DNA from: Candidatus Omnitrophota bacterium
GTDB lineage: Bacteria; Omnitrophota; Gorgyraeia; Gygaellales; Profunditerraquicolaceae
Assembly (NCBI GenBank): GCA_026416665.1
Contig: JAOAET010000051.1
Location: 75,800-139,799, forward strand
Direction: 5' to 3'
DNA length: 64,000 nt
Shown: piece after piece, positions 6,149 through 30,145 of the stretch
How positions within the stretch are numbered: the stretch's first letter is position 1
How the letters are laid out: each line of letters begins with the position of its first letter
The notes under the pieces: generated by a model
Database searches by the model: none
What the model was told of the DNA's origin: nothing
Seen by the model: only the letters and a program-made list of their open reading frames with translations
Position numbers and translations under genes: made by a program

Positions 6149-7030
6149 CTAACGCAACCTCCTTTCCCGCATTCGGAAAAATTGGAAGAGCATTCGGTTA
6201 TATGGTAAATCAGAACGCAGATTAATGCTATCTATACCAATGCGTTCGAAGGTCTTCTTAAGCCCTTCTTGAACTAATCGTGCCTGTTCTGCAAATTCGC
6301 TACGGATTTGCCTACTTGAGGTATCTATACAAGCAGTCACATCAGTTTCCGCATCTTCAAATTGCACTATCCCTATGTCAGGAATACTAATTTCTCTGGG
6401 GTCAGTAAGGGTAATTGCCACCACATCATGACGCTTATTAGCCACAGCTAATTGTTTCTCAAAATCTCTTTCGCTTAAAAAATCCGAAATGACGAAAACT
6501 ACGCTTTTACGTTTACAAACCTTTCCAAGATATTCTAAAGCCATTGCGATATCTGTTTTTTTACTCTGACCAGTTAAATAAAGTGCATCACGGATAATCC
6601 TCAAGATGTGTCGTAAACCTTTCTTCGGCGGAATAAATTCCTCTACCCTATCAGAAAAAGCAAGGAAACCTACTTTGTCATTATTTCTTATAGCTGCTAA
6701 AGCTAATAAGGCACATATATGTGCAGCTAAAGTGCGCTTTAATTTCTGGCTGGTACCAAAGTAAATTGAGCCAGATATATCCATGACCAATAAGACAGTC
6801 AGTTCTCTTTCCTCAACAAACTTTTTGACATAAGGATGCCCCAATCTTGCTGTTACATTCCAATCAATAGTGCGCACCTCGTCCCCTGGTTGATAAGGAC
6901 GCACTTCTTCAAATTCTATTCCTCGCCCCTTAAAGACACTTTGATATTGCCCACAGAACACGTCATTAACCATTCGGGAAGTAGTAATTTCAATACGACG
7001 AATCTGTTGTAAAACTTCTTTAGGAATCAT
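6149..7030 (-). CDS. DUF58 family protein (MoxR partner, vWA-like)
   Basis: Position immediately downstream of moxR. Sequence style (DWNVTARLGHPYVKKFVEERELTVLLVMDISGS) typical of DUF58. Confidence 0.75.
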   Translation of the reverse strand: MIPKEVLQQIRRIEITTSRMVNDVFCGQYQSVFKGRGIEFEEVRPYQPGDEVRTIDWNVTARLGHPYVKKFVEERELTVLLVMDISGSIYFGTSQKLKRTLAAHICALLALAAIRNNDKVGFLAFSDRVEEFIPPKKGLRHILRIIRDALYLTGQSKKTDIAMALEYLGKVCKRKSVVFVISDFLSERDFEKQLAVANKRHDVVAITLTDPREISIPDIGIVQFEDAETDVTACIDTSSRQIRSEFAEQARLVQEGLKKTFERIGIDSINLRSDLPYNRMLFQFFRMRERRLR

Positions 7031-7040
7031 AGATATTTTG

Positions 7041-8036
7041 TTAAGGAACTTCTATTTCTTCAAATACGCGTTTTATTATATCTTCAGATGTCTTATTTTC
7101 TGCCTCTGCCTCAAAACTTACAATTATCCTATGGCGCAATACATCAGGACCCACGGACTTAACATCTTGAGGTGTAACATAGCCTCTCTGCTGAAGAAAT
7201 GCATAGGCTTTACTGGCAACCGTTAGATAAATGGTAGCGCGAGGTGATGCTCCGTATTGAATAAGGTCTACTAAATCTTTTAAATTGTAATCACTGGGTT
7301 TACGAGTAGCAAAAACAATATCCAGAATATATTTTTCAATTTTTTCATCCATATAAATTTCATTCACTACTTGCCTTGCTCGTTTAATATCCTTGGGACC
7401 AATTACTGCTGCAACTTCAATTTTTTTGTCAGTTACAGCATATTCCTTTAGAATTTTCTGTTCTTCTTCCCGAGAAGGATAGGTTAGGTTTATCTTAAGC
7501 ATAAAGCGGTCAACTTGTGCCTCTGGTAATGGATAGGTCCCTTCTTGTTCAATAGGGTTTTGGGTAGCCATAACCAAAAAAGGCTCTTCCAGCTTAAAGG
7601 TCTGCTCACCAATAGTAACTTGGCGTTCCTGCATTGCCTCTAATAAAGCACTCTGCACCTTTGCTGGCGCACGGTTAATTTCATCAGCTAAGATAATATT
7701 GGCAAAGATAGGACCCTTTTTTGTAGTAAAGGTGCCGTCTTTGGGATTGTAGATTAGTGTTCCAATAAGGTCAGCAGGAAGTAAATCCGGGGTAAATTGA
7801 ATCCTTTGGAATTTTGCCTGAATTGCTTCAGCTAAAGTTTTTACAGAAAGTGTCTTGGCAAGACCAGGGACACCTTCTACCAGAACATGCCCATTTGCTA
7901 AAAGTCCTATCAAAAGTCTATCAATAAGATAACGTTGTCCGATAATAACTTTTTCTATCTGCTGTCTTAAAACACTAATAAAAGCACTTTCTTGCTTGAC
8001 TTTCTCATTAATCGCTGTTAGACCCGTATAACTCAT
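7041..8036 (-). CDS. moxR: MoxR-family AAA+ ATPase
   Basis: Walker A GVPGLAKT, Walker B ILADEINRA, MoxR length (~330 aa) and conserved C-terminal region. Confidence 0.9.
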   Translation of the reverse strand: MSYTGLTAINEKVKQESAFISVLRQQIEKVIIGQRYLIDRLLIGLLANGHVLVEGVPGLAKTLSVKTLAEAIQAKFQRIQFTPDLLPADLIGTLIYNPKDGTFTTKKGPIFANIILADEINRAPAKVQSALLEAMQERQVTIGEQTFKLEEPFLVMATQNPIEQEGTYPLPEAQVDRFMLKINLTYPSREEEQKILKEYAVTDKKIEVAAVIGPKDIKRARQVVNEIYMDEKIEKYILDIVFATRKPSDYNLKDLVDLIQYGASPRATIYLTVASKAYAFLQQRGYVTPQDVKSVGPDVLRHRIIVSFEAEAENKTSEDIIKRVFEEIEVP

Positions 8037-8245
8037 AGACTCCTCCTATTTGTTTCTTGTTTTGTTCCTAATGACTCATTGCAGTTTACACAACGATAAT
8101 CATAAAGTTCACCATCAGGTAGAACTAACAACAATATCTCCCGAACTGGCATTGACCTTTTACAGTTTGGACAATACAGGTAAGTAGCGCTCATGCGCTC
8201 AAATTGTCTTTGTTGATTGTCATTTTCTTCTGGAATAAACCACAT
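8033..8245 (-). CDS. Small zinc-ribbon protein (CxxC...CxxC)
   Basis: 70 aa, CPNC-x23-CVNC. ATG verified. ATGA overlap with the moxR start suggests co-translation. Confidence 0.45.
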   Translation of the reverse strand: MWFIPEENDNQQRQFERMSATYLYCPNCKRSMPVREILLLVLPDGELYDYRCVNCNESLGTKQETNRRSL

Positions 8246-8265
8246 GAGATTATGGTAAGGAATAT

Positions 8266-8457
8266 TTATGAGGCCAAATTTGTTCTGTCCATTTCATAAA
8301 GTGCATTACCACACCAACGGCATTTTTTTTCATCCTCACGGTAACCATCTACCATAAGACACTTACGACAACGGTAATTACCACCTGATGATTTAAATGC
8401 TCCGTACTCTTTCTGCAGTGCTAGGATATCAACATTTTTTAGAACATTCTCATGCAT
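8266..8457 (-). CDS. Small zinc-ribbon protein (CxxC...CxxC)
   Basis: 63 aa, CRKC-x15-CRWC. Strong SD (GGAGGTG) 8 nt upstream of the ATG. Confidence 0.55.
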   Translation of the reverse strand: MHENVLKNVDILALQKEYGAFKSSGGNYRCRKCLMVDGYREDEKKCRWCGNALYEMDRTNLAS

Positions 8458-8490
8458 ATACCTGACACCTCCAGAAAGTAAAAGGCAGAT

Positions 8491-8532
8491 AAAAGGGTTG
8501 CCCCTGTTTAAACAGAGGCAACCCTTTTCTTT
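8491..8532 (-). terminator. Intrinsic terminator-like hairpin downstream of groEL
   Basis: GGGTTGCCCCTG/CAGAGGCAACCC 12-bp stem (1 mismatch), 6-nt loop TTTAAA, flanked by A-run and T-run, 15 nt after the groEL stop. Confidence 0.55.
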
Positions 8533-8546
8533 ATTGTGTTATAGGA

Positions 8547-10172
<1,626 letters not shown>

Positions 10173-10192
10173 TCACCTCTCCTTTCTTTAAA

Positions 10193-10483
10193 TTAATCAT
10201 TAATAATTGCTAAAACATCTTCTTCCCTGATAATAAGGTGCTCTTCACCATCAATCTTTATCTCTGTTCCTGCATATTTTCCATAGAGAATGCGATCCCC
10301 TGGTTTGACCTCTAAAGGCTGAATCTTACCATCTTCAAGCACCTTACCTTTACCTACAGCAATAACTTTCCCCTCTTGGGGTTTTTCCTTTGCTGTATCA
10401 GGTAAAATAATACCACCTTTGGTTCTTTCTTCTGCCTCCAAAGGTTTTACCAGGATCCTGTCTGCCAACGGTGTAATCTTCAT
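10193..10483 (-). CDS. groS: Co-chaperonin GroES (Hsp10); start moved to internal ATG
   Basis: [29 protein letters not shown] is the canonical GroES N-terminus. SD GGAGCAGG precedes ATG at 10483. The track's longer 131-aa ORF adds a non-conserved 35-aa extension. Confidence 0.9.
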
Positions 10484-10648
10484 ACCATCCTGCTCCTTTC
10501 TGTTAATAGGTTGTTGAACTTTACTATTATAACCTAATCTTTTTTGTGGTAAAATTGTTTTTTTACCACCAGAGATTTTTTTAGACAAAATTTTTTATTG
10601 CTTTCACCTCCTTCCAGATTAAACCATTTATCTTACTTAAATTTATTC

Positions 10649-11125
10649 TCAATTAATCTTGATTGTTTTAGTTGAAGGATAAGAACTCTTTTGTTTAGGG
10701 AGGTTTAACTCTAAAACCCCATTTTTATATGTGGCTTTTGCTTTTTTAACATCAACTTCCGAAGGAAGAGTTACTGTCCGTATAAAACTTCCATAAAATC
10801 TTTCTTGTCTAAGACAAGATTTTTCTTTAGCGCTTTTTGAATATTTCTTTTCTCCTTCAATAGTCAAAACTCTTCCTTCAAGTTTTAATTTTATATCTTT
10901 CTTATCCAAACCTGGCAAATCTGCTTTTACTACAATGTTATCTTTTGATTCGTGAATATCTAACTCTGGGGTCCAGAAAGCAAACTCCTTCTTAGAGCTA
11001 CGTTTCTCTAAATATTTTTCAAAGGTAGAATCAAATAATGTATTTAAATTCTTTTGGAGTTTTTCTATTTCACTAAAAGGATCCCATATTTTTGGTGAAT
11101 GGGGTTGCCATGGAATTAACTGCAT
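10649..11125 (-). CDS. Hsp20/alpha-crystallin family small heat-shock protein
   Basis: ACD-domain pattern (WTPELDIHESKDNIVVKADLPGL...ERFYGSFIRTVTLP...YKNGVLELNLPK). SD AAGGAGG precedes ATG at 11125. Confidence 0.85.
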   Translation of the reverse strand: MQLIPWQPHSPKIWDPFSEIEKLQKNLNTLFDSTFEKYLEKRSSKKEFAFWTPELDIHESKDNIVVKADLPGLDKKDIKLKLEGRVLTIEGEKKYSKSAKEKSCLRQERFYGSFIRTVTLPSEVDVKKAKATYKNGVLELNLPKQKSSYPSTKTIKIN

Positions 11126-11140
11126 GGAACACCTCCTTGA

Positions 11141-11170
11141 CTGTAGCGGCACACAATTGTGCCGCTACAG
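11141..11170 (-). promoter_or_regulatory. Perfect 13-bp inverted repeat / stem-loop (CTGTAGCGGCACA-CAAT-TGTGCCGCTACAG) between two sHSP genes
   Basis: Seen directly. It abuts the SD of the downstream sHSP gene and has no U-tract after it. Confidence 0.5.
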
Positions 11171-11197
11171 CATAAAGAAAATATCCGAAGTTCTCTA

Positions 11198-11566
11198 TTA
11201 ACTTTTTATTTCAATTTTTTTAGGAATACTTGAAGCTACTTTCTGTAAAGTAACCTTCAGTATCCCATTTTCATATTGGGCTTCTATTTTTTCTTTATCA
11301 ATCATATTACCCAAGATAAATTTGCGCATATACTCGTAGGGGCAGCGCTCACGATGAATAACCGTGTAACCTTTGGGAGGTTCACAACTTTTAGGTTTCC
11401 CTTTGATAATTAACTCATCATCCTGCAACTCAATGGAAATATCTTCTTTATTAAGTCCCACCATTTCTGCCTCTAAAATCACCTCTTTATCAGTCTGACG
11501 CACATTAACTAGAGGCTGGACAATTCTTTCACTTACCTGTTCATCTTTGTGTTTTAAGGCAGACAT
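11198..11566 (-). CDS. Hsp20-like (alpha-crystallin domain) small heat-shock protein, divergent member
   Basis: Short ACD-like architecture (TDKEVILEAEMVGLNKEDISIEL...YENGILKVTLQK). Confidence 0.65.
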   Translation of the reverse strand: MSALKHKDEQVSERIVQPLVNVRQTDKEVILEAEMVGLNKEDISIELQDDELIIKGKPKSCEPPKGYTVIHRERCPYEYMRKFILGNMIDKEKIEAQYENGILKVTLQKVASSIPKKIEIKS

Positions 11567-11610
11567 TATCTATCACCTCCTTTATATAGGAAGTTTTCGG
11601 ATAATAAGGA

Positions 11611-12081
11611 TTACTTTATTTCTAATTTTATTTGTTTAGGTTTTGCCTTTTCACTCTTAGGCAAAACAACCTCAAGAACGCCATTTTTGTAAGTAGCTTC
11701 TACCTTATCCGCCTGAACTTCTACAGGAAGGCGAATTGCCCTTTGAAAAGCACCATAGAATCTCTCAGTGCGGATATAGTCTTTTTCTTTTATATCTTTA
11801 TCCTGTTTTTTCTCTCCCTTAATAAACAGAGTATCACCTTGAACAGTCACCTCAATATCATCCTTGGTAAGTCCAGGTATATCGGCTTTTACCAGAAGAT
11901 TATCCTTAGAATCGTAGATATCTATTGCAGGGATCCAGGCACCATCCAGAAGTCCGACATGACGGCTGGTTTCCTGTGCAAGTGTTAGATTAAACAAACG
12001 ATTCATCTCTCTTTGGATCCTTTCTAAATCAGCAAAAGGATCCCACCAATCTTGTCTCGGTCTCCAGGTAATCAGCGCCAT
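11611..12081 (-). CDS. Hsp20/alpha-crystallin family small heat-shock protein
   Basis: WIPAIDIYDSKDNLLVKADIPGL...ERFYGAFQRAIRLP...YKNGVLEVVLPK. SD GGAGGG precedes the ATG. Confidence 0.85.
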   Translation of the reverse strand: MALITWRPRQDWWDPFADLERIQREMNRLFNLTLAQETSRHVGLLDGAWIPAIDIYDSKDNLLVKADIPGLTKDDIEVTVQGDTLFIKGEKKQDKDIKEKDYIRTERFYGAFQRAIRLPVEVQADKVEATYKNGVLEVVLPKSEKAKPKQIKLEIK

Positions 12082-12102
12082 AATCCATCCCTCCTTTCTT
12101 TT

Positions 12103-12129
12103 TTAGCACTCGTTCCACACAAGTGCTAA
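12103..12129 (-). promoter_or_regulatory. CIRCE operator (HrcA-type heat-shock element)
   Basis: TTAGCACTC-N9-AAGTGCTAA matches consensus TTAGCACTC-N9-GAGTGCTAA with one mismatch. Lies 22 bp upstream of the first sHSP start. Confidence 0.8.
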
Positions 12130-12147
12130 TAATTGGTTAAAAATTTT

Positions 12148-12438
12148 TTAAGTACTCTTGTATATCTTTTCCTCCATCTCTAGAACGTATTTAAGCCCAC
12201 TTAACTTAATCTTCTTTTCCTTCATAATATACCAGATGTGGCTGAGTTTGTTAAGTTCATTATGTGAATAAAGCCTTGCCTTACCTTTTTTGCGTGGTGG
12301 AGAAATTATAGACGCCTTATCAAGCTGCTTAAGCACCCATACTGGGATACCCAACAGCCTACTTACCACGCCACTAGTGTAGACGGGTTCATTATCATTA
12401 ATCTGAACCTTATCTCCATAATGGACTGCTTTTTTCAT
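12148..12438 (-). CDS. MerR-family HTH transcriptional regulator, HspR-like
   Basis: N-terminal HTH (YTSGVVSRLLGIPVWVLKQLDKASIISPPRKKGKARLYSHNEL) of MerR/HspR type. Located directly upstream of the heat-shock cluster. Confidence 0.6.
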   Translation of the reverse strand: MKKAVHYGDKVQINDNEPVYTSGVVSRLLGIPVWVLKQLDKASIISPPRKKGKARLYSHNELNKLSHIWYIMKEKKIKLSGLKYVLEMEEKIYKST

Positions 12439-12447
12439 TCCACTTTT

Positions 12448-12476
12448 TTTATATCACGATTTTCGAAATTTGTCAA
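12448..12476 (-). promoter_or_regulatory. Sigma70-like promoter for the HspR-like gene (-35 TTGACA, 17-bp spacer, -10 TATAAA) with a TTTCGAAA palindrome in the spacer
   Basis: Read on the minus strand: TTGACA-aatttcgaaaatcgtga-TATAAA. The -10 ends ~10 nt before the ATG, implying a leaderless or very short-leader mRNA. Confidence 0.45.
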
Positions 12477-12762
12477 GTATTTTTTTAAAAATTTTTTTCT
12501 ATTTTCGAAATATTTTTTTCGATTTTGGCACTATCTATTGCTCCAAAAACTTTTAAATTTTAAATTAATTTTAATTGCACTTATCTATTATCTATCTTTA
12601 TTGATTCTCAAAAAAACACTTCTTCAAAGATAATCAAACCTTTCTATAATTTGATATCAAAATAAGAGCTGGCTATGTTTCTAAACTTAGAAGCAAAGTT
12701 ATCTATTTTTTATCAATATTTAGTAAAAGGTGTCTTAAATCTTTTATTTATTTTTATTGTAG

Positions 12763-12771
12763 TGGTATAAT
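12763..12771 (+). promoter_or_regulatory. Extended -10 promoter element (TGGTATAAT) for the plus-strand island
   Basis: TGnTATAAT ~40 nt upstream of ATG 12813. SD AAGGAAG precedes the ATG. Confidence 0.4.
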
Positions 12772-12812
12772 AGCACATTGTGAAAAATAAATTATAACAA
12801 AATAAAGGAAGT

Positions 12813-13511
12813 ATGCAAGTGAATTATTTTCGGTATCTATTTGGAATAAATGCCTCAGAGATAAAGAAAACCTGTATAATTGTTCCACTGCTGCCTAAAA
12901 ATTTAGATAGTTGTTTTGAAAAAATATACAACTACAGAGGTTTACTTTACTCAGTAATTAATACACAAAACTGTTCCATTATCCGTACAGGAGTGGGAGC
13001 AGGGCTCTGTGGCGATGCGATTTTATACCTAAAAGAGACACAAGCAAGTAATCTTATTTTATTTGGTTCCTGTGGTTTGGTTCGACCTAAAAATAATTTA
13101 AAGATAGGAAGCCTTGTTGCGCCAGAGAAAAGCTTTAACTTAGAAAGTTTTACCAATCTTTTGAGAAAAAATATTAGCTGGCAAAACTATTACCCTAATA
13201 AGATTCTGTTAAAAAAAATATTTACGGCAATAGAGGGAATATGTAAAGTTACTTCCGCAACCATTGGCTCAATCTATTTAGAATCACAATATCTAGAATT
13301 GTTTAAAAAGAAAAAAGTCGATATTGTGGAGATGGAAGCCTCTGCTTTTTTCAGTGCAGCAAAGAAAATAAAAAGAAAAGCAGCAGCTTTATTTTATATA
13401 ACAGATATAGTGCCAGTAAAACCTTTTTGTCAACCACTAAACACGCAAGAGAAAATAACTTTAAACAAAATAATTACAAATACTTTATTAACACTATGTC
13501 ATCTTTCATAA
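12813..13511 (+). CDS. PNP/UDP-phosphorylase superfamily nucleosidase (MTA/SAH- or 5'-deoxyadenosine-nucleosidase / futalosine-hydrolase-like)
   Basis: GVGAGLCGDAILYL...LILFGSCGLV resembles the MTAN glycine-rich/SAGG region. VDIVEMEASAFFSAA resembles the catalytic ExE[SA]AA motif. Confidence 0.55.
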   Translation: MQVNYFRYLFGINASEIKKTCIIVPLLPKNLDSCFEKIYNYRGLLYSVINTQNCSIIRTGVGAGLCGDAILYLKETQASNLILFGSCGLVRPKNNLKIGSLVAPEKSFNLESFTNLLRKNISWQNYYPNKILLKKIFTAIEGICKVTSATIGSIYLESQYLELFKKKKVDIVEMEASAFFSAAKKIKRKAAALFYITDIVPVKPFCQPLNTQEKITLNKIITNTLLTLCHLS

Positions 13512-14848
13512 CACAATATCAGCATCTTAAACTGATAAGCTCTTTCGTAAAAAAGAAATTTAGACACTTCGGTGTAAACAAAAAACAAGAGATTATCCGG
13601 CTTGTTTATGAAATATGTAAAAGAGAAAACCTAAAACCTCAGACAGTCCTAAAAGATTTACCAGTGGGAGAATTCCACGCTTTAAAAGATTATTTAGTTT
13701 GTCGTCGTTTCCCCATTGCCTATGCACACAATCAAACAAGAACACTACATTTACCTAAATTAAAATTAGATAAAAGTAAAATCTTCGCGGCATCATCTAA
13801 AGATTTTTATCCACGAAAAATTATTGTGGAAAAAAGAGTCCGCGATTCAGTACTTACTAAAAAATTTACTTCTTATTTTCCAGATGCTAAATTAAAAGAA
13901 ATAGACACTTTAAAATCTTTTATAAAAAAATACCGTTGTCTTAAGGCCTTTGACTATAATCACCGAACAGATACTGTAATTATCATACATCAACCAGCGG
14001 ATTTTTTTAAACGCTGTCCCTGTACCAAATATGCGGTGGGATGTAACTATAATATTTTTAATCTCAGCTTTGGCTGCATATTTGAGTGCACATACTGCTT
14101 TCTCCAGGAATACACCAATAGCCCAGGAATACTTTTCCCCGCTAATCTTGATTCATTTTTTGAGGCATTTAAAAATTATGTGGGTAATTTTAAAAGATTA
14201 GGCAGTGGGGAATTCTCCGACTCTCTTATGTTAGATAACGTTACTGAATACTCTCAAGAAATTATTGCCTTTTTTAAAAAATATCCAAGTGTTCTTTTTG
14301 AATTTAAAACTAAAAGCTGCCAAATAAACAATCTTCTGTCTGCGCGTCATAAAGGAAATATTGTTGTTGGCTGGTCATTTAACCCAGAATGCATTATTAA
14401 GGAAAATGAGTTTTATACTGCTAGTCTCCAACAAAGACTCATAGCCGCCCAAAAATGTGTCCAAGCGGATTACAAAATAGCCTGCCATTTTGACCCAATC
14501 ATTTATTTTCAAGATTGGCGAAAAGAATATGAAAACCTTATTGAAAAAATTTTCAATTACTTAAAGCCCAAAGATATCGCTTGGATAAGCTTGGGCACTT
14601 TACGTTTCAATCCTGCATTAAAAACTATAATTGAAACACGTTTTCCCCTTAACAGGATCTTAGATGCTGAATTAGTTTATGGATACGACAGAAAATTACG
14701 CTATCCCGATGTCCTGCGCAGAGATATTTACCAGTATATGATTAGACTACTCAAAAAACACAACAAAAACATACCTGTTTATTTATGTATGGAAAATGTA
14801 AATATGTGGCGGCTAGTTGGATTGTCGTTGCCTCAACAAATTATTTAA
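13496..14848 (+). CDS. Radical-SAM protein of the spore-photoproduct-lyase (SPL/COG1533) family with a novel N-terminal extension
   Basis: CxxxCxxC embedded as GCIFECTYCFLQEY (SPL-type C..C.YC.LQ). Track start 13427 is TTG. ATG at 13496 overlaps the upstream stop by 16 nt, consistent with translational coupling. About 190 aa precede the cluster motif without recognisable homology. Confidence 0.5.
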   Translation: MSSFITQYQHLKLISSFVKKKFRHFGVNKKQEIIRLVYEICKRENLKPQTVLKDLPVGEFHALKDYLVCRRFPIAYAHNQTRTLHLPKLKLDKSKIFAASSKDFYPRKIIVEKRVRDSVLTKKFTSYFPDAKLKEIDTLKSFIKKYRCLKAFDYNHRTDTVIIIHQPADFFKRCPCTKYAVGCNYNIFNLSFGCIFECTYCFLQEYTNSPGILFPANLDSFFEAFKNYVGNFKRLGSGEFSDSLMLDNVTEYSQEIIAFFKKYPSVLFEFKTKSCQINNLLSARHKGNIVVGWSFNPECIIKENEFYTASLQQRLIAAQKCVQADYKIACHFDPIIYFQDWRKEYENLIEKIFNYLKPKDIAWISLGTLRFNPALKTIIETRFPLNRILDAELVYGYDRKLRYPDVLRRDIYQYMIRLLKKHNKNIPVYLCMENVNMWRLVGLSLPQQII

Positions 14849-15007
14849 ATCTATAAAAATAAATCACTCATTAAAATTCACCTATAGTTACCTATCGGTT
14901 TAATAAAAACCTCTTTATTTGGTAACCGTCAACATTAACAGACATAACCTACTTTTTTGTGGAAATTAAAAATAAACTTTACTAATATTATATAAAGCTA
15001 TCATCTA

Positions 15008-17041
15008 TTATTTCTCTGTCTTTTCAATTTCAGAAAGAGGAAGTAAACTGTCTTCAATTTGTCTTTCTAGGTATTTCTCTACAAAACCAGGTATGGAATC
15101 ACGAAGGCGTTGTTTAAAATCCGATTCAAGCCATTGAAAATTGATATTATTGAGTTCTCCTGAAAGTTTAAAATCGAAGGTAAGCATAGAAATTTCCTTG
15201 CCTACTAATCTTAGAAGTGGCTTAAATTTATTTGAATTCTGTAATAAATCTTTATGAATGCTTAAAGAAAGCTTACTAGTAACTAAATTATTATTACCAA
15301 GCCAGAAATCACCTGTTAAAATAATGTTTTTTGACCTTACGTTTAACTTATGTAGCCCAGCACCTTGTGAATTAACCTTGAAAAAGGAATGTGCGCGTTC
15401 AAAATTTACCTGAGTAAGCGGTAATGAAAAAGATGAACTCAACCATTTCAAGAACTCAAAATCTTTAGCATACCCATTACGGATAATAAATGATCCCTTT
15501 ATCGCTTGCTCAGGGACATTTCTAAATTCTAATTGACCAGAGATTTTACCATATACCTTGGCAAAATGGATAACTAAACGTTCCAATTTATTGCTGGAAA
15601 CATCTTTATATCTAATTGTTGTATTAACTTCGGGTATCGCTTTAGTTATATCTATCCAATTACGACCGTAAAGTATTCCATCATATAATCGGCTGTGGAA
15701 GTACGCAATCTTCGCTTTAAGTGGTGCACAGTTAATTTTTATCTTTAACTGTGATAAAGGAAGGAAATATTCGTTAGTTTCGGTGAGTATATTAAATTGA
15801 GCCTCACTAATATCTGCTGTAAGTAAAGGAAAAGCCTGTCCATTTATCTTTACATTATTAAGTTTTATTTTCATATTCTCAAGAGGAGTAGTCTTAACAT
15901 TTTTCTGTAAAAATAAAAATTCAACCAGAATATCTCCCGAAAAAATTTTTTCTCCGTAATGGCCCTGTATAAGTGTTTCTAAACGTTTTACATTTAATTG
16001 TTGTTGAGCGGTATCCTTAAGTCGTCTAAACTGGGCAGACAAATTAACATTGAAATCTATGGCCTTCTCAGAAGAAGATACTATAGAGCCATTAAATTTT
16101 ACAGGATTATTGTTAATAGAAAAACTAAGATTATCTATATCTATTTTAGGAAAATCTTTAATATTAATCACACTATCTATATCTAAGATAAAAAGATCAA
16201 CAACTGGTAATAAGCCACCTTTAGGCGGCGGCGGGAAACCTCTTAGAAAATTTTCAATACGTTCCTTAATACTCAAATATGGCGCAATGTAATTGCCCTC
16301 TTTAAATAAGGTATTAATAAAACAAAACCCTTTTGTTCGAATGATTCCTCTGGTTATATTACCCCATAGTTTTGTATAAAGATTTTCTCGAATGATTTCA
16401 ATATTATCAAAAACAAAATCATTATCACTAAATCTTCCGTAAGCAATAAATTCCCACGGTAAAAAAACTCTCTGCTGAGAATTAATGTAAGAAACCGCCC
16501 CGTAACTATAAAAATTATCATTTTTCAACTTCAGGTAAAAACGTATTTCAAAATTATCCGAAGAGACTTGTTTTAATTGAAATTTTTTTACAATAAACCG
16601 TAAATCTTTTTTGGGTAAATCAAGAAGTAACTCAATGACCTTTTTACCATAAAGTGCCAGGAAATTCCTGAATACTTCTTCTTCAGTATTTACCTCATAA
16701 AAGCATATATCGGTTATTTCAATTTGTCCATAACGGATAAACTTAATTATGGAAAATTTTACCAAAACGAGAGGAACGGAAAAGATAGTTCTATTCACCG
16801 CCTCTTTGTTTTCCACTAAAGAGATGTTTTTAAGAAATATAAAATTAGGGGGTAGGTAAAGGACACGCTCAACAAAGAGCTCTTGGGGTAAATAGGCTCT
16901 ACCAATCGTGCGTAAGGTATCTTTAAGAAAACCAAGTGTAATATTTACTATAATTAACGCGGAAAGTAGAACTAATAAAATAACACCAGTAAAAAATATA
17001 CGTTTTTTTAATTTAGTAGTTGATACGCGCAAAGAGTTCAC
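15008..17041 (-). CDS. Large membrane-anchored hypothetical protein (possibly AsmA-like)
   Basis: 677 aa, single N-terminal TM (IFFTGVILLVLLSALIIVNITLGF), long beta-rich N/K/F/I-rich body, GTG-type start. A/T-rich coding. Confidence 0.45.
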   Translation of the reverse strand: MNSLRVSTTKLKKRIFFTGVILLVLLSALIIVNITLGFLKDTLRTIGRAYLPQELFVERVLYLPPNFIFLKNISLVENKEAVNRTIFSVPLVLVKFSIIKFIRYGQIEITDICFYEVNTEEEVFRNFLALYGKKVIELLLDLPKKDLRFIVKKFQLKQVSSDNFEIRFYLKLKNDNFYSYGAVSYINSQQRVFLPWEFIAYGRFSDNDFVFDNIEIIRENLYTKLWGNITRGIIRTKGFCFINTLFKEGNYIAPYLSIKERIENFLRGFPPPPKGGLLPVVDLFILDIDSVINIKDFPKIDIDNLSFSINNNPVKFNGSIVSSSEKAIDFNVNLSAQFRRLKDTAQQQLNVKRLETLIQGHYGEKIFSGDILVEFLFLQKNVKTTPLENMKIKLNNVKINGQAFPLLTADISEAQFNILTETNEYFLPLSQLKIKINCAPLKAKIAYFHSRLYDGILYGRNWIDITKAIPEVNTTIRYKDVSSNKLERLVIHFAKVYGKISGQLEFRNVPEQAIKGSFIIRNGYAKDFEFLKWLSSSFSLPLTQVNFERAHSFFKVNSQGAGLHKLNVRSKNIILTGDFWLGNNNLVTSKLSLSIHKDLLQNSNKFKPLLRLVGKEISMLTFDFKLSGELNNINFQWLESDFKQRLRDSIPGFVEKYLERQIEDSLLPLSEIEKTEK

Positions 17042-17549
17042 CGTTTATGGAGAATTCAACTTTATCAATGAAGTAGCGAACACAAAGTTTGCGCTTTAAA
17101 GCAGATACATAAGAAATTGTCTTTGATTCTCTAAAAACTAAACTGAGTCGTTGGCAGGATATTATTAGTTGTGTAAGTTTTTCTGTAGTAGATTCATCGC
17201 CCAGATACTGGGCAATTTCCCGTAAATAACATAAAGCAAAAACAGAAGCAACAGAATCGGGGTAACGATCAATAAACTTTAAAAAAGTGGTGGTTGCCTG
17301 TCGATAGTTTCTTTCTATAAAATAATATTCTCCAACTGCAAAAAGAGCCTGTTCACTATACCGCGAAGAAGGAAATTGCTCTAAGAGATTATTAAAATAC
17401 AAAAAAGCAAAATCAAGATTACCACTTTGTACTTGTTGGCTAGCTAAACTGAAGAGCTCGTATTCACTAAGAGAAGGTATCTGTGCCCCTGCAATCAGAG
17501 GACAAATTAAAGTAAAAATAAATATAAAAACATATTGTAATTTTAGCAT
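17013..17549 (-). CDS. Secreted TPR-like protein (YbgF/BamD-like fold)
   Basis: Signal peptide MLKLQYVFIFIFTLICPLIAGAQ. TPR-like helices (FAFLYFNNLLEQFPSSRYSEQALFAVGEYYF, ATTTFLKFIDRYPDS). Track start is TTG at 17588. ATG at 17549 is preceded by SD GAGGAG. Confidence 0.5.
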   Translation of the reverse strand: MLKLQYVFIFIFTLICPLIAGAQIPSLSEYELFSLASQQVQSGNLDFAFLYFNNLLEQFPSSRYSEQALFAVGEYYFIERNYRQATTTFLKFIDRYPDSVASVFALCYLREIAQYLGDESTTEKLTQLIISCQRLSLVFRESKTISYVSALKRKLCVRYFIDKVEFSINGELFARINY

Positions 17550-17684
17550 ATTAATCTTCTCCTCATTTTTTATATTATACCGCCACAAACTGTCCTGGTC
17601 AATTTTTACTTAAATAACAAAACAATTTAGAGATTTTGTATTAGGAAGTCTGAAGAAAGTTTTTTCCTCATATTTATAAAATCT

Positions 17685-19871
17685 CTAAACTAACGGTGGA
17701 AGAGAAAACACTGGATGCTGAACCTGTTGAAGATAAGCTATTAACTCTTCAGCAGTAGTAGCAACATCTTCATCAGCAATCTTCTCTAATAAGTCGGGAA
17801 TCTTTAGTTCCTCGCACCGTCTCTTTAATTTATCTGCCAACAACTGTTTTAACTCCTTAGGCATCCAAACCACTCTTTTTAAACCATCTTCTGCAAGGAT
17901 AAACTTCTTACTTGTCAAATAAAGTTTACCGACTCCTAAAAAACCAGGTGTCTGAACCCCTCCTCCTACTGAACCAGCTAAACTAGTAAAAGTCATTCCT
18001 ACTGGTGTCATACCACTGTAGTCCCTATGCACAACCATTACTCCGTTCACTTCTGGAACAATTGCTACAATACATTCAAAGCACCCACAGGAAGATTGTG
18101 GACAATCCATCAATGAATACATACTTACTCGTTCTATTGTTTTGTTAGATCTCTCATAGATAAACTGGTTTATCTTTTCCCATTGCCCCAATCTTTGATC
18201 AAGCAGCTTTCCTTTTTCCAAAGGTTGATTAGGCCCAGTAGGGTTAATCTCGTAGGATGCCTTCGCGTCTAACCAAGAATACGCACCACAAAGCCCTAGT
18301 CTTTCTGGAGTAATAATACAAACATGATTAGGAGCAAAACTTTGACATAAAGTACAACTGTAAAAAGTTTCTACGCTTTCATCAGTCATACCACTTATCC
18401 GCTCATCTCGCTCGTCAAAGACCTTTTTGGTAGCTGGCAATAATCGCTGAACGTCTTCTTGTCGCGTATAAATCTTTACCTGCACTTTATCTACAATTGC
18501 GCTAAATTCTTGATGTAACATAGCGTGGAGAATTTTTCCGATGTGCTTTAGACGAAATCCCTTGTTGAACGCCTCTTTAGATATCCGAATCCAAATCATA
18601 TCACGTTGACCAATATGCATTAAACCTTGGGCGTAGTTAATGAAACGATGAATCTGTCGTTCTAAAATTGGTTCAAAGTCTTTTATCATCTTTCTTCCAC
18701 CGACTTCCACACAGATAGCCAATGGCATACTCTTTTTTTCAAAAGGCAGCTGGTCAATATCTTCGCCTATAATCTGACAACTACCATCAATTATTTCATC
18801 CATATTTTTTACCGTAAGAAATTCAAAAGCCACCGATGCCTTTCCACCAAACTCAACATAAAGCTGTTCTTTACGGACACGCTCACCTTCAAATGCAGGG
18901 GCATAGGCAACAGGTATATCTATTTTGTTAATCTTGACTTTAATACCGCGAATTTGAATACATTTTTCTACAATTTTAGTATAATCTTTTTCTGTAACTA
19001 ATGCTTCATGAAGAGTAGTCTGGATTTTTCCTAATTGTGGCACTTCTAAATCCGTAATAATTGGAAATCCGAAAGCTAAAACCCCTAAACCTGTAGCAAC
19101 AATTACTTCATCGAGATAAGACAGCAGTACTACAAACGCGGGAACACGATTCTTGATATACTCGGTAATACCCTGCCATTGTCCAGGCTTGTATCCGCCA
19201 TAGATCAAAGGCGCACGCACAGCAAAATTAACTGCATAAATAGCAGACAAGTAATCTTCTCCCAATGGCACAATGTAGTTATCTAAACCAATTTCCACTT
19301 TTTTCTCTTCTAGTTGTTTTTTAAAAGAAAACCCTTTTGTTGACCCTACTAAGATACTAACAATACTTTTAGATTGAAAATCCCGCACAAGCTGCACTGC
19401 TTTGTCTGCGTCCTGGGCAGGACCTAAGATAACTGCAATCCCAGCAATTCTTCCATCTACCAACTGTATTCCTAACGAACGTAAAATATTATCTGGCAGA
19501 AAACCGATACAACCTTTTGTGGGATGCAGGCCTAATTTTGTGTTAACAGATGCCAAAACCTCCTCATATAAAAGAGTGGCTATTCCTTTATTAAGGATTC
19601 CATCTAATGCCTCAATAAAAAATCCTTGCGAAGTAGGTTTATTAAAAACTAATCTCTCTGCCTCTGACAGAACCTCTAAACAATCGTTCGCGGTTTTTAC
19701 TTCTTTTTGTAAGAGGGCCAAAGATAACGGTAGATAGTAATTAGTATGAGGAAAAGATACAGTGGTATCTTTTCCTTTTTCGGTAATAAACTTATCCAAA
19801 GTCTCTTTAGTATGCTTCAATATAGCCTCTGTCCCTTTTGTTCCTGCTTGCACCAAGATATCAATTGACAT
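17685..19871 (-). CDS. acsB: Acetyl-CoA synthase (CODH/ACS complex A-cluster subunit)
   Basis: FPHTNYYLPLSLALL N-terminal signature. [4Fe-4S] cysteines CTLCQSFAPNHVCIITPERLGLCG and Ni-bridging CGC (SSCGCFEC). SD AGGAGG upstream. Confidence 0.85.
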   Translation of the reverse strand: MSIDILVQAGTKGTEAILKHTKETLDKFITEKGKDTTVSFPHTNYYLPLSLALLQKEVKTANDCLEVLSEAERLVFNKPTSQGFFIEALDGILNKGIATLLYEEVLASVNTKLGLHPTKGCIGFLPDNILRSLGIQLVDGRIAGIAVILGPAQDADKAVQLVRDFQSKSIVSILVGSTKGFSFKKQLEEKKVEIGLDNYIVPLGEDYLSAIYAVNFAVRAPLIYGGYKPGQWQGITEYIKNRVPAFVVLLSYLDEVIVATGLGVLAFGFPIITDLEVPQLGKIQTTLHEALVTEKDYTKIVEKCIQIRGIKVKINKIDIPVAYAPAFEGERVRKEQLYVEFGGKASVAFEFLTVKNMDEIIDGSCQIIGEDIDQLPFEKKSMPLAICVEVGGRKMIKDFEPILERQIHRFINYAQGLMHIGQRDMIWIRISKEAFNKGFRLKHIGKILHAMLHQEFSAIVDKVQVKIYTRQEDVQRLLPATKKVFDERDERISGMTDESVETFYSCTLCQSFAPNHVCIITPERLGLCGAYSWLDAKASYEINPTGPNQPLEKGKLLDQRLGQWEKINQFIYERSNKTIERVSMYSLMDCPQSSCGCFECIVAIVPEVNGVMVVHRDYSGMTPVGMTFTSLAGSVGGGVQTPGFLGVGKLYLTSKKFILAEDGLKRVVWMPKELKQLLADKLKRRCEELKIPDLLEKIADEDVATTAEELIAYLQQVQHPVFSLPPLV

Positions 19872-20820
19872 TTGTCCTCCTTAAAAATCGTATTGTTTCA
19901 ACAAGACGCTCTGCCTGTTGTGTAGTTGTCCGCCAATCCTTAAATTTCACTTCCTCGTTAGGTTGACAACAAACAGAACCACAAGCGAAGATATATGGTT
20001 CAGAAGTTGCCATATCTTTGTCAACTACGACTGCATTATTAACAAGGGCCATACCTGTATCTTCTAGGAAGTCAGTGGCTGGTTGCTTTTGCCCCATTAC
20101 CCCTATCCAACAAACACCGATGATCTTTCCGTTGTCTAATTTAATCGCCTGAACACCTGATTCCCCGATTATCTCAACAACTTTAGTAGGAATCACCTCT
20201 ACCATAGATGAAGAGAAGTCTACTTTTTGATTTGTTATAAGTTTCACTTCAACTCTTTTTTTTATTAGTATATCAATGACTAAGGAAGTAAAATGGTTAA
20301 CTCCTAATAAAGCTACCGTATCCTGAGTAATAGTATTTTTTAACTGCTTGAAATCTGCAAGGCTATCAAATACGAAAACACCATTTTTGTTAATACCTAC
20401 TATATCGTTAGGCAAAACTGTTTTTGTACCGGAACAGATAACTAAATAATCGTAATTGATAGTATCTCTCTTTTCTTGATACCGAAAAGACACCGACTTA
20501 CGTTTAGAGTTGACTGACACTACCGTATGTTCAGGTAAAAAGAAAATATTTCGTTTCTGATAATCCTCCTGCCCTAAGACAAACAATTCTTTCTCTTTTA
20601 CTTTTCCTTCCCAGAAAGAAAAAAGTTTTCTGCGGTCATAAAAAGGATATTTTTCCTGACTTAGTATAGCTATTCCAATATCATCTTTAAACACTTCTCT
20701 TAACTTGTAAGCAACCGTATGTGCAGCAACAGACCCTCCCACGATTACAAATCGTTGGTCAAAATTATCCTGCCATTTTTCTATGAAGTGTTCGGTAATA
20801 TCCTGTTTCTGCTGTGCCAT
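19861..20820 (-). CDS. FAD/NAD(P)-binding oxidoreductase (Pyr_redox_2-like, NADH-oxidase/CoA-disulfide-reductase type)
   Basis: Rossmann motif VIVGGSVAAHTVAYKL plus a second nucleotide-binding region. Start set to ATG (MAQQKQ...) to avoid a 103-nt overlap with metF. 11-nt overlap with acsB. Confidence 0.6.
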   Translation of the reverse strand: MAQQKQDITEHFIEKWQDNFDQRFVIVGGSVAAHTVAYKLREVFKDDIGIAILSQEKYPFYDRRKLFSFWEGKVKEKELFVLGQEDYQKRNIFFLPEHTVVSVNSKRKSVSFRYQEKRDTINYDYLVICSGTKTVLPNDIVGINKNGVFVFDSLADFKQLKNTITQDTVALLGVNHFTSLVIDILIKKRVEVKLITNQKVDFSSSMVEVIPTKVVEIIGESGVQAIKLDNGKIIGVCWIGVMGQKQPATDFLEDTGMALVNNAVVVDKDMATSEPYIFACGSVCCQPNEEVKFKDWRTTTQQAERLVETIRFLRRTNVN

Positions 20821-20831
20821 AGTTTCTAATT

Positions 20832-21701
20832 TTACAACCCAGCGGCATCTAAAAGTGGCAAAACAACTTTGTTCCAGCCAATAGGCATAATATGAATACC
20901 CTGGCACATTGGTTTTAATTGTTTTATTAAACAAGAGGCAATTTCCACTGACTTAGCAACTCTGTCCTTAGCAGATTCTATTTCTTTAATCAGTTCTTCA
21001 GGAACATTTACTCCCGCAACATTTTTATTCATAAATCGCGCCATAGCAGCGGATTTTAGTAGAACAATTCCTGCCAAAATAGGTATTTTAAGGTGTTTTA
21101 CCCTATTTATAAAACGTTCAAAAACAGCTATATCATAAACTGCCTGGGTTTGAAAAAATTCTGCACCAGCTGCAATTTTCTTTTCCATCTTAGCAATCTG
21201 TGGTTCAAGGGGCTCTGCTCCGGGATTAACTACCGCTCCTACGCAGAATTTAGGGGGGTGTCCCTCTAATTTATTGCCTTTCATATCAAACCCACTCTGT
21301 AACTTTTGAATTACCTCTAACAGCTGCACTGAATCAAGATCAAAAACAGGTTTTGCCTCAGGATGATCACCGACAGTAGGATAATCTCCTGTAAGTACAA
21401 GAATGTTTTCTATCCCCAGTGCCGCAGCAGAAAGAATATCTGACTGCAAGGCAAGCCGATTACGATCCCGACAAGTTACTTGGTAAATCGGTTCAAAACC
21501 TCTCTGCTTAAGTAATGCGCACACAGCTAATGACCCAAGACGCATTACTGAACTCTGTAAGTCCGTAACATTTATAGCATCTACTCGCCCACGGATTGTC
21601 TCTATGTCTTCAAATAATCGTGTGGTCTCAAATCCTTTAGGAGGACCTATTTCAGAAGTAATTACAAATCTCGCTGAATGGATTTTCTCTTTGAAAGTCA
21701 T
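20832..21701 (-). CDS. metF: 5,10-methylenetetrahydrofolate reductase
   Basis: FVITSEIGPPKG...INVTDLQSS...ILVLTGDYP MTHFR signature. Same operon as acsB. Confidence 0.85.
   Translation of the reverse strand: MTFKEKIHSARFVITSEIGPPKGFETTRLFEDIETIRGRVDAINVTDLQSSVMRLGSLAVCALLKQRGFEPIYQVTCRDRNRLALQSDILSAAALGIENILVLTGDYPTVGDHPEAKPVFDLDSVQLLEVIQKLQSGFDMKGNKLEGHPPKFCVGAVVNPGAEPLEPQIAKMEKKIAAGAEFFQTQAVYDIAVFERFINRVKHLKIPILAGIVLLKSAAMARFMNKNVAGVNVPEELIKEIESAKDRVAKSVEIASCLIKQLKPMCQGIHIMPIGWNKVVLPLLDAAGL

Positions 21702-27867: not shown

Positions 27868-30128
<2,261 letters not shown>

Positions 30129-30145
<17 letters not shown>

Follow-up and report, generated by a model that had tools for sequence, protein, structure and literature searches.

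A divergent nucleosidase-like gene overlapping a gene for a radical-SAM enzyme of the spore photoproduct lyase fold, not a spore photoproduct lyase, in Candidatus Omnitrophota

A stretch of 64,000 nt from a metagenome-assembled genome of Candidatus Omnitrophota (the window; positions are counted from its first letter) carries two overlapping genes on its plus strand. The first, gene 1, encodes a divergent enzyme of the nucleoside phosphorylase-I (NP-I; PNP_UDP_1) fold, and the second, gene 2, encodes a radical S-adenosylmethionine (radical-SAM) enzyme with the fold of spore photoproduct lyase (SP lyase; SPL family). The finding is real: gene 2 represents a branch of the SPL family that is uncharacterised, conserved in many genomes and equipped with its own set of partner genes. 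The two genes and their features are listed below.

12806-12809, plus strand: AGGA, read in the sequence 5' of gene 1
12813..13511, plus strand: gene 1, 232 aa; divergent NP-I (PNP_UDP_1) fold enzyme, putative purine N-ribosidase
12819, plus strand: alternative GTG start of gene 1, which yields the 230-aa NCBI model
13065..13076, plus strand: G85-S-C-G88 of gene 1, ribose/phosphate loop of the NP-I fold, invariant in the gene 1 family alignment
13332..13406, plus strand: M174-E175 through D198 of gene 1, invariant or near-invariant, aligned to EMEA and SD of purine nucleoside phosphorylase (PNP)
13496..13511, plus strand: overlap of gene 1 and gene 2 in the sequence, 16 nt, with the gene 1 stop at 13509-13511
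13496..14848, plus strand: gene 2, 450 aa from ATG; SPL-fold radical-SAM enzyme of an uncharacterised subfamily
13496..13795, plus strand: N-domain of gene 2 (residues 1-100), a predicted basic five-helix bundle and the sole truly extra part of the protein
14015..14044, plus strand: Cys-rich insertion C174-P-C176-T-K-Y-A-V-G-C183, a 5-residue insertion relative to 4rh0
14075..14098, plus strand: radical-SAM motif C194-x3-C198-x2-C201, invariant in 83/83 sequences, equivalent to C90/C94/C97 of SP lyase
14210..14212, plus strand: E239 in G-E-F-S-D, at the position of the H-donor Cys140 of SP lyase; Glu in 81/83 and Gln in 2/83 sequences
14486..14497, plus strand: H331-F-D333-P at the end of a barrel strand; H331 and D333 invariant in 83/83
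14681..14707, plus strand: predicted beta-hairpin G396-Y-D398-R-K400-L-R402-Y403-P (DSSP strands 394-395 and 401-402 in the model)
14786..14788, plus strand: C431 in Y-L-C-M-E, third conserved extra Cys, present in 82/83 sequences, the remaining one having a gap

Both reading frames lie where the initial annotation had placed them, and all the motifs it had quoted (GVGAGLCGD, LILFGSCGLV, VEMEASAFFSAA and GCIFECTYCFLQEY) were found in the sequence. The gene 2 ATG at 13496 does fall 16 nt inside gene 1, as had been claimed. Gene 2 can also be read in a longer form that starts at TTG 13427, but the evidence favours ATG 13496: every homologue begins at the matching position, and the NCBI protein P0001 (450 aa) is 100% identical with 100% coverage. 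For gene 1 either ATG 12813 or GTG 12819 may be the start, and its NCBI counterpart of 230 aa is 100% identical with 99% coverage. Both proteins are annotated as hypothetical at NCBI. No Shine-Dalgarno-like motif was seen at the 16-nt overlap. Judged from the overlap, the two genes are probably translationally coupled.

Gene 2 matched the SPL family PF20903 with an E-value of 1.8e-30 (106.4 bits, threshold 27). When its AlphaFold model (pLDDT 86.8, pTM 0.88) was searched by Foldseek, SP lyase was recovered at E 1e-21, with a target-normalised TM-score of 0.79-0.80 and 25% identity over ~340 residues, followed by the pyruvate formate-lyase activase at E 2.6e-4. A profile of 28 homologues gave SP lyase as its sole match in the PDB (E 6e-33). 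The initial assignment of gene 2 to the SPL-type radical-SAM enzymes holds at superfamily level. Residues 101-390 correspond to residues 1-294 of the SP lyase of G. thermodenitrificans (PDB chain positions 28-321). The functional residues of SP lyase (PMC3467042) were carried through the profile alignment to 4rh0 and checked in 83 family sequences. Gene 2 shares with SplB of G. thermodenitrificans (PDB 4FHC/4RH0) the fold, the CxxxCxxC motif, then Y-C-[YF]-L-Q, the SAM ligands and, in the model, a hairpin. C194, C198 and C201 as well as the SAM ligands K273 (Lys174 of SP lyase), S294 (Ser195) and R370 (Arg273) were conserved in 82-83 of the 83 sequences, and Y200, aligned with Tyr96, was invariant. 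The initial annotation had counted ~167 residues between the ATG and the Fe-S motif (190 from the TTG) and had described a novel extension of ~190 aa. With the first Cys codon (tgc) at 14075-14077, the correct counts are 193 and 216, respectively, and about 93 of the 193 residues make up the normal N-terminal segment of SPL, which leaves an extra part of only ~100 residues.

The residues that handle the spore photoproduct in SP lyase are changed in the gene 2 family. In SP lyases of the Bacillus type the H-donor is a fourth conserved cysteine, Cys140/141; the Cys140 position is occupied by Glu in the gene 2 family. The position of Arg193 aligns with Gly/Ser292, and Glu268 sits in an SPL-specific two-residue insertion that the family lacks; thus, these two dihydrothymine-binding side chains are missing. 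Tyr339, which also hydrogen-bonds the dihydrothymine, did not align. The Ser76-Lys77-Ser79 loop, which holds the 3'-thymine in SP lyase (PMC3467042), is replaced by the Cys-rich insertion. C174 and C183 of this insertion are invariant in the 83 sequences, and C176 becomes Gly in the short forms of the family described below. C174 is one alignment column away from the Ser76/Cys77 position, Cys77 being the H-donor of the Clostridium type; it could serve as an H-donor in the manner of the clostridial Cys77. Alternatively, the three extra cysteines C174, C183 and C431 could be ligands of an auxiliary cluster. The invariant His331 and Asp333 have no counterpart in SP lyase, which has V-V-A234-P at this site, A234 contacting SAM. 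Sequence alignment of the C-terminal 80 residues of gene 2 to SPL failed. Residues D398, K400, R402 and Y403 of the predicted hairpin are conserved in at least 80 of the 83 sequences, and we take this hairpin, by position only, to be the counterpart of the Arg304/Tyr305/Lys309 hairpin of SP lyase. Since the cofactor ligands are kept and the residues specific to the spore photoproduct are changed, the cofactor machinery appears to be intact and the substrate pocket to have been rebuilt.

Several sources annotate gene 2 as 'spore photoproduct lyase (family)', and its fold and SAM-binding residues are the same as those of SP lyase. It is nevertheless hardly credible that gene 2 is an ordinary SplB orthologue which repairs 5-thyminyl-5,6-dihydrothymine. 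On the SplB equivalog model TIGR04070 it reached 110.9 bits where 400 are required, Glu stands in place of Cys140, neither Arg193 nor Glu268 is present, and the protein carries an additional 100-aa domain as well as the Cys insertion. Its hosts are non-sporulating Omnitrophota and Elusimicrobiota and not endospore-forming Firmicutes. Canonical SplB was therefore discarded, both for the score on the equivalog model and for the mapped residues, in agreement with the initial annotation. In contrast to SplB, gene 2 has an N-terminal helical domain, CPCTKxxxxC in place of the Ser76-Ser79 loop, His331, Asp333 and Cys431, and it is accompanied by nucleosidase, aldo-keto reductase (AKR) or family 2 glycosyltransferase (GT2) genes. 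It shares the Pfam family or superfamily of other COG1533/SPL proteins (TIGR03886, PA0069 and Rv2578c types), but these do not have the N-domain, the Cys insertion or the partner genes of gene 2, which scored 57 bits on TIGR03886 (lyase_spl_fam) against a cut-off of 437. Taken together, these comparisons place gene 2 firmly among the radical-SAM enzymes of predicted SPL fold and outside the SP lyases. To our knowledge, only one activity has been characterised in the SPL family, namely that of mending a single type of DNA lesion in spores.

The N-terminal stretch, to which no motif had been assigned earlier, falls into two parts in the fold search: the first ~100 residues (N-domain) had no fold match, and in particular no recognisable nucleic-acid-binding fold was found in them, and the rest aligns with SP lyase. 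The N-domain shows the conserved pattern G26-x-N28-K29...R35...E39...R71-x-P73. Short forms of gene 2 (~360 aa), which have no N-domain, occur in Ratteibacteria-type, KSB1 and Syntrophobacteria genomes. Directly upstream of them is encoded a ParB_N/Noc-like protein of ~313-430 aa, the ParB_N and Noc-like regions of which match at E 1e-10 to 1e-12. Comparison by hhalign showed the N-domain and the C-terminal region of this protein to be homologous (probability 96.3%, E 1.5e-9). At the level of sequence this indicates a fusion or fission event, with the N-domain as either the fused remnant of a once separate partner or its counterpart. The loci with a ParB_N/Noc-like gene and a short form are as follows.

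L079:5052-5993, ParB_N/Noc-like gene with short-form gene 2 relative
L080:1140-2369, ParB_N/Noc-like gene with short-form gene 2 relative
L091:5001-5951, ParB_N/Noc-like gene with short-form gene 2 relative
L092:1064-2005, ParB_N/Noc-like gene with short-form gene 2 relative

The short-form operon of the Ratteibacteria type reads GT2, PNP (not always present), ParB-like protein, short SPL and alpha/beta-hydrolase. One such locus (L091) has the PNP gene and a close relative (L092) does not. Other neighbours of the short-form loci were mostly unrelated housekeeping genes.

Gene 1 belongs to the PNP_UDP_1 superfamily, as initially proposed: PF01048 was matched at E 9.7e-14 (51.8 bits, cut-off 25.1), and the G-S-C-G loop, Met-Glu and the base-contacting Asp are present. 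Its closer placement with 5'-methylthioadenosine/S-adenosylhomocysteine nucleosidase (MTAN), 5'-deoxyadenosine nucleosidase and futalosine hydrolase held only at the level of the superfamily. The MTAN/Pfs equivalog NF005522 gave 32.1 bits against a cut-off of 161, DeoD (TIGR00107) 31.6 bits against 232 and HpnG (TIGR03468) 15.5 bits against 187, and the curated-model search returned no match to a futalosine hydrolase model. A profile of the gene 1 family searched against the PDB found DeoD-type PNP as the best match (2.4e-10), with MTAN at 4.5e-5 and 1.4e-3. On alignment to PNP structures (5lu0, 4d8v), M174-E175 would form the ribose 2'/3'-OH binding site, as in EMEA of PNP and MTAN, and D198 (13404-13406) would be the Asp that protonates purine N7. 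The phosphate-binding Arg87 of DeoD ('RIGTCG') is replaced by Leu83. Residue 29, mostly basic (K/R), lies near the position of DeoD Arg24, so that gene 1 may act by phosphorolysis as well as by hydrolysis. A hidden Markov model (HMM) search of 1.84 billion representatives retrieved 934 sequences at E<=1e-3 and 177 at E<=1e-30. By these comparisons gene 1 is firmly placed as a specialised NP-I enzyme, whose subfamily is small and stands far from the bulk of the superfamily. One weak match (P0160) was set aside as an unrelated PNP-like gene of a mobile/defence region; at L088:6001-6957, NUDIX, integrase and AbiEii genes surround a 318-aa PNP_UDP_1 protein whose similarity to gene 1 is weak (E 9e-8), which gives this region the look of a mobile or defence island.

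Relatives of gene 2, with identities of 35-58%, were found in at least 584 species genomes, mainly of Omnitrophota and Elusimicrobiota/Endomicrobia, the latter including the cultured Elusimicrobium simillimum, and also in WOR-1, Ratteibacteria-type bacteria, KSB1 and Syntrophobacteria. We surveyed the neighbourhoods of 83 non-redundant loci of the family. In 15 homologous loci a gene 1 relative lies directly upstream with an overlap of 4-44 nt, and all eight distinct loci with a gene 2 at least 49% identical to ours carry the overlapping pair. Seven loci beyond these 15 have a gene 1 relative within 6 kb in other arrangements (22/83 in total), and the pairing recurs in operons of Elusimicrobiota/Endomicrobia, WOR-1 and the Ratteibacteria type. 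The reverse look-up gave the same picture: an SPL-type radical-SAM gene adjoins the gene 1 relative in 3/3 true members (L087, L089 and L090), as an AKR-SPL operon divergent from the nucleosidase in L087 and as a fragmentary SPL gene in L090. The gene 1 subfamily is therefore found almost only beside SPL-type radical-SAM genes. In L090 the SPL gene (5132-5884) is called at only 250 aa, perhaps through a frameshift or an assembly error, or because it is a pseudogene. In L089 (3731-10447) the gene 1 relative stands between a pair of radical-SAM genes (B12-radical-SAM and small COG1533) and DUF362/polyferredoxin genes; no long-form gene 2 relative was found there within 6 kb, and the nucleosidase may serve this wider multi-radical-SAM cluster.

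That the adjacency is meaningless, the two genes being unrelated neighbours co-inherited in one clade, would agree with the variation of flanking genes between loci and with the lack of a nearby nucleosidase for most family members. We consider this very unlikely, because the linkage recurs in several phyla and takes several forms. The two genes overlap and run in the same direction in 15 loci, diverge in L077, L087 and L090, have an AKR gene between them in L023 and L028, and belong to GT2-PNP-ParB-SPL operons in L079 and L091; the gene 1 subfamily is hardly present elsewhere. The pairing, which the initial annotation had left to be checked in relatives, is thus firmly genuine, invariant among close relatives and facultative in the family as a whole. 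A literature search on the gene 2 family (SPL + nucleosidase, COG1533, Omnitrophota + radical SAM, ParB-like + SPL) retrieved no paper.

Which gene stands immediately 5' of gene 2, in the same orientation and mostly with overlapping ends, depends on the lineage: it may be the PNP-family nucleosidase, an AKR or a GT2. AKR takes this slot in 26/83 loci, mostly of Elusimicrobiaceae but also of Omnitrophota, and GT2 is present in 18/83 loci, adjacent in 13. AKR and GT2 were never found together in the 83 loci; the nucleosidase occurs with either, with AKR in L015, L023, L028 and L087, and with GT2 in L003, L005, L079 and L091. Genes for B12-binding radical-SAM proteins recur near gene 2 in nine loci, and a ~280-aa PA0069/mob_pairB-like (small COG1533) radical-SAM gene and DUF362/ferredoxin genes are also recurrent. 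Such a neighbourhood looks like that of a multi-step pathway; it is not what a radical-SAM enzyme that merely keeps its own scavenger of 5'-deoxyadenosine would be expected to show. The Elusimicrobia/Endomicrobia loci (L027, L030, L035, L037 and L040-L064) have addB-addA and a YbaB-like gene at a distance of a few genes upstream of gene 2, with AKR (Elusimicrobiaceae) or the nucleosidase (Endomicrobia) in the upstream slot; this synteny extends across classes within one phylum.

By analogy with known systems, we propose, at a probability of roughly 0.3, that the pair is central to a small pathway of biosynthesis or modification, where the nucleosidase would take adenine off an adenosylated product. 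On this view gene 2 serves neither DNA repair nor a reaction whose by-product needs a private scavenger. We infer the adenosyl transfer, the order of the steps and every substrate. Like SP lyase, gene 2 would hold a [4Fe-4S] cluster together with SAM and make the 5'-deoxyadenosyl radical, which would add to an unsaturated acceptor to give a 5'-adenosylated product. Gene 1 would then cleave adenine off this product, so that a ribosyl (C5) extension remains. The co-operonic AKR of other lineages might reduce the ribosyl group, or GT2 might decorate it; the B12-radical-SAM enzymes would carry out further tailoring, and electrons would come from the DUF362/ferredoxin proteins. The place at which SP lyase binds the 3'-thymine would be taken by the three-Cys site, with Glu in place of the H-donor Cys and the His-x-Asp as a new element.

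The precedent is provided by HpnH, which adds the 5'-deoxyadenosyl radical to diploptene, after which the PNP homologue HpnG removes adenine and the GT2 HpnI and the radical-SAM HpnJ follow (PMC13459092; PMC12324291). The same classes of enzymes (radical-SAM, PNP-family, GT2 and B12-type radical-SAM) are linked in the gene 2 neighbourhoods. The likeness is one of pathway logic only: gene 2 has the SPL fold, the HpnH model TIGR03470 was not among the matches listed at E<=1, gene 1 falls far below the HpnG cut-off, and squalene-hopene cyclase is not in the gene 2 neighbourhood. Hopanoid synthesis in Omnitrophota has been reported only at low levels (PMC12324291). MqnE similarly adds the 5'-deoxyadenosyl radical to an olefin (PMC13459092). 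As proposed here, the radical of MqnE ends in the product, but gene 2 belongs to another radical-SAM subfamily (Foldseek E 2e-3, TM ~0.35) and no mqn genes are nearby. The product of MqnE is then acted on by a nucleosidase of the NP-I family (MqnB/MTAN, futalosine pathway). Because HpnH/HpnG is the best-documented pairing of a PNP with a specific radical-SAM enzyme and MqnE is similar, adenosylation followed by removal of adenine was ranked first. The small size of the gene 1 subfamily and its linkage to SPL-type genes argue for a pathway-specific nucleoside substrate.

Several points weigh against this proposal. We know of no SPL-family enzyme that transfers an adenosyl group, and gene 2 is similar to HpnH, MqnE and ArsS only in the radical-SAM core. 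The likeness of the GT2 and B12-radical-SAM neighbours to HpnI and HpnJ is no more than generic. In 61/83 loci there is no nucleosidase within 6 kb, 19/83 loci are without any partner gene, and the window itself has only the pair and no other partner genes. The ParB_N/Noc-like partner of the short forms and the retained basic hairpin hint at nucleic acid over a small molecule. With respect to the missing nucleosidases, a housekeeping MTAN substitutes in some futalosine pathways, and this could apply where PNP is absent (L092 as compared to L091). A bolder form of the proposal, which we regard as rather unlikely, is that an SPL-fold lyase was converted to a 5'-deoxyadenosyl transferase in a fourth independent adenosylation pathway after MqnE, HpnH and ArsS. 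Its acceptor would be a lipid or metabolite held by an auxiliary Fe-S cluster of the three cysteines, and removal of adenine followed by AKR or GT2 action would give a C5-polyol-extended or glycosylated envelope product of Omnitrophota and Elusimicrobiota.

Every radical-SAM enzyme makes 5'-deoxyadenosine, and the initial annotation had suggested a nucleosidase dedicated to clearing this by-product. Gene 2 would then abstract hydrogen and release 5'-deoxyadenosine stoichiometrically, gene 1 would hydrolyse the inhibitory by-product to adenine and 5-deoxyribose, and AKR might reduce the 5-deoxyribose in other lineages. Gene 1 resembles MTAN/Pfs, which relieves product inhibition of radical-SAM enzymes, in its NP-I fold, its Met-Glu and Asp and a plausible release of adenine. 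It keeps the ligands of an adenosine-type nucleoside, namely the Met-Glu and the Asp for purine N7 that are found in MTAN and PNP, and the missing equivalent of DeoD Arg87 is compatible with a hydrolase. The stop/start overlap implies ~1:1 co-expression, and the best match of the AKR neighbour is a small-aldehyde reductase (YdjG-like, 221 bits). The change of Cys140 to Glu breaks the proposed route of SAM regeneration (PMC3467042), and 5'-deoxyadenosine would therefore accumulate. However, a generic activity would not need so divergent a subfamily (934 of 1.84e9 sequences) travelling only with SPL-type genes; unlike MTAN, gene 1 has a profile nearer to DeoD-type PNP and belongs to a narrow, lineage-specific subfamily and not to a housekeeping one. 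The GT2, esterase and B12-radical-SAM neighbours play no part in disposal, and most loci have no nucleosidase. The initial suggestion is thus supported by the ligands kept in gene 1 and by the lost Cys, and weakened by the divergence, the facultative pairing and the pathway-like partners. We treat by-product clearance as doubtful yet a serious contender, second to the adenosylation pathway and nearly as likely.

The third-ranked explanation, which appears unlikely to us, is that gene 2 repairs a lesion other than the spore photoproduct or installs a modification on a DNA or RNA base. The N-domain or the ParB/Noc-like protein would target the polymer, GT2 would glycosylate the base, and the nucleosidase would be accessory or unrelated. 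SP lyase is the nearest structure by far, the next match being 17 orders of magnitude worse, and R370 (Arg273, a phosphate contact) and the invariant basic/aromatic hairpin K400-L-R402-Y403 are kept. The short forms are preceded by a ParB_N/Noc-like protein with a C-terminal part homologous to the N-domain, GT2 has a sub-threshold match to a TET-associated DNA glycosyltransferase family (24.9 bits, threshold 27.5), and gene 2 lies just downstream of addAB in Elusimicrobia and Endomicrobia. Yet the thymine-contacting Arg193 and Glu268 are not conserved, the loop that holds the 3'-thymine has given way to another, no fold known to bind nucleic acid was recognised in the N-domain, and the addAB synteny is limited to one phylum. 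Nor is it obvious what the nucleosidase, AKR and esterase would do on a polymer. The median pI of 9.9 of the N-domain was discarded as a test of nucleic-acid binding, since a high pI is usual in these AT-rich genomes (background median 8.75).

Whichever chemistry applies, the gene 2 family is a large, well-conserved branch of SPL in bacteria that never sporulate, with a rebuilt pocket, an extra domain and recurring partners. Its chemistry would give a function to a signature gene of the poorly known Omnitrophota and Elusimicrobiota and could reveal a new route of radical adenosylation, as in the pathway we favour, or a new radical transaction on nucleic acid; if the nucleosidase only clears 5'-deoxyadenosine, the finding would be a modest refinement of annotation. 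Cultured Elusimicrobium strains carry the gene 2 family, which makes experiments possible.

The pair had been noted as divergent from a heat-shock regulator, and the upstream gene is indeed of the MerR family (HspR-like) and heads an operon of three Hsp20 genes, groES and groEL. A functional tie to this regulator was rejected, as the flanks differ in every relative. The operon is organised as follows.

8547-12438, minus strand: compact heat-shock operon (regulator, three Hsp20, groES and groEL)
12148-12438, minus strand: MerR/HspR-like regulator, heading the operon
11611-12081, minus strand: first Hsp20 gene
11198-11566, minus strand: second Hsp20 gene
10649-11152, minus strand: third Hsp20 gene
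within 10193-10588, minus strand: groES; the listed TTG start is probably too far upstream
8547-10166, minus strand: groEL

The pair had also been described as richer in A+T than its surroundings. The contrast holds with groEL and acsB (G+C 0.38-0.46) but not with the genes downstream: the G+C of the pair is 0.30-0.34, and that of the next two downstream genes (15008-17588) is 0.30-0.35. The pair is thus no compositional island, because its low G+C is common to these genes, and horizontal transfer was rejected on the same ground and on the vertical spread of the relatives. Genes for AKR, GT2, B12-radical-SAM, DUF362 and ParB-like proteins were sought elsewhere in the 64-kb window and none was found. 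Scans for promoters and terminators were at chance level (15 found, 12.7 expected).

Convergent with gene 2 is a 677-aa reading frame on the minus strand (15008-17041), the N-terminal segment of which appears hydrophobic; it had zero Pfam matches. It may be an envelope protein outside recognised families, because a YfiO/BamD-like lipoprotein with tetratricopeptide repeats (17013-17588) follows it. The minus-strand gene at 17685-19871 encodes the beta subunit of carbon monoxide dehydrogenase/acetyl-CoA synthase (ACS_CODH_B_C, CdhC), which suggests Wood-Ljungdahl capacity of this Omnitrophota genome.

Strand bias in the window is extreme, all credible open reading frames of at least 120 aa being on the minus strand except three genes. 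These are the pair and the polyprenyl synthase (29060-30145), as the initial annotation had recognised; two further plus-strand frames of at least 120 aa lie wholly within longer minus-strand frames. GC skew is negative over most of the profiled region (7000-21000), with brief exceptions near 12600-13300 and 16800-17500. The strand bias and the skew are consistent with a location within one replichore and a strong co-orientation of genes.

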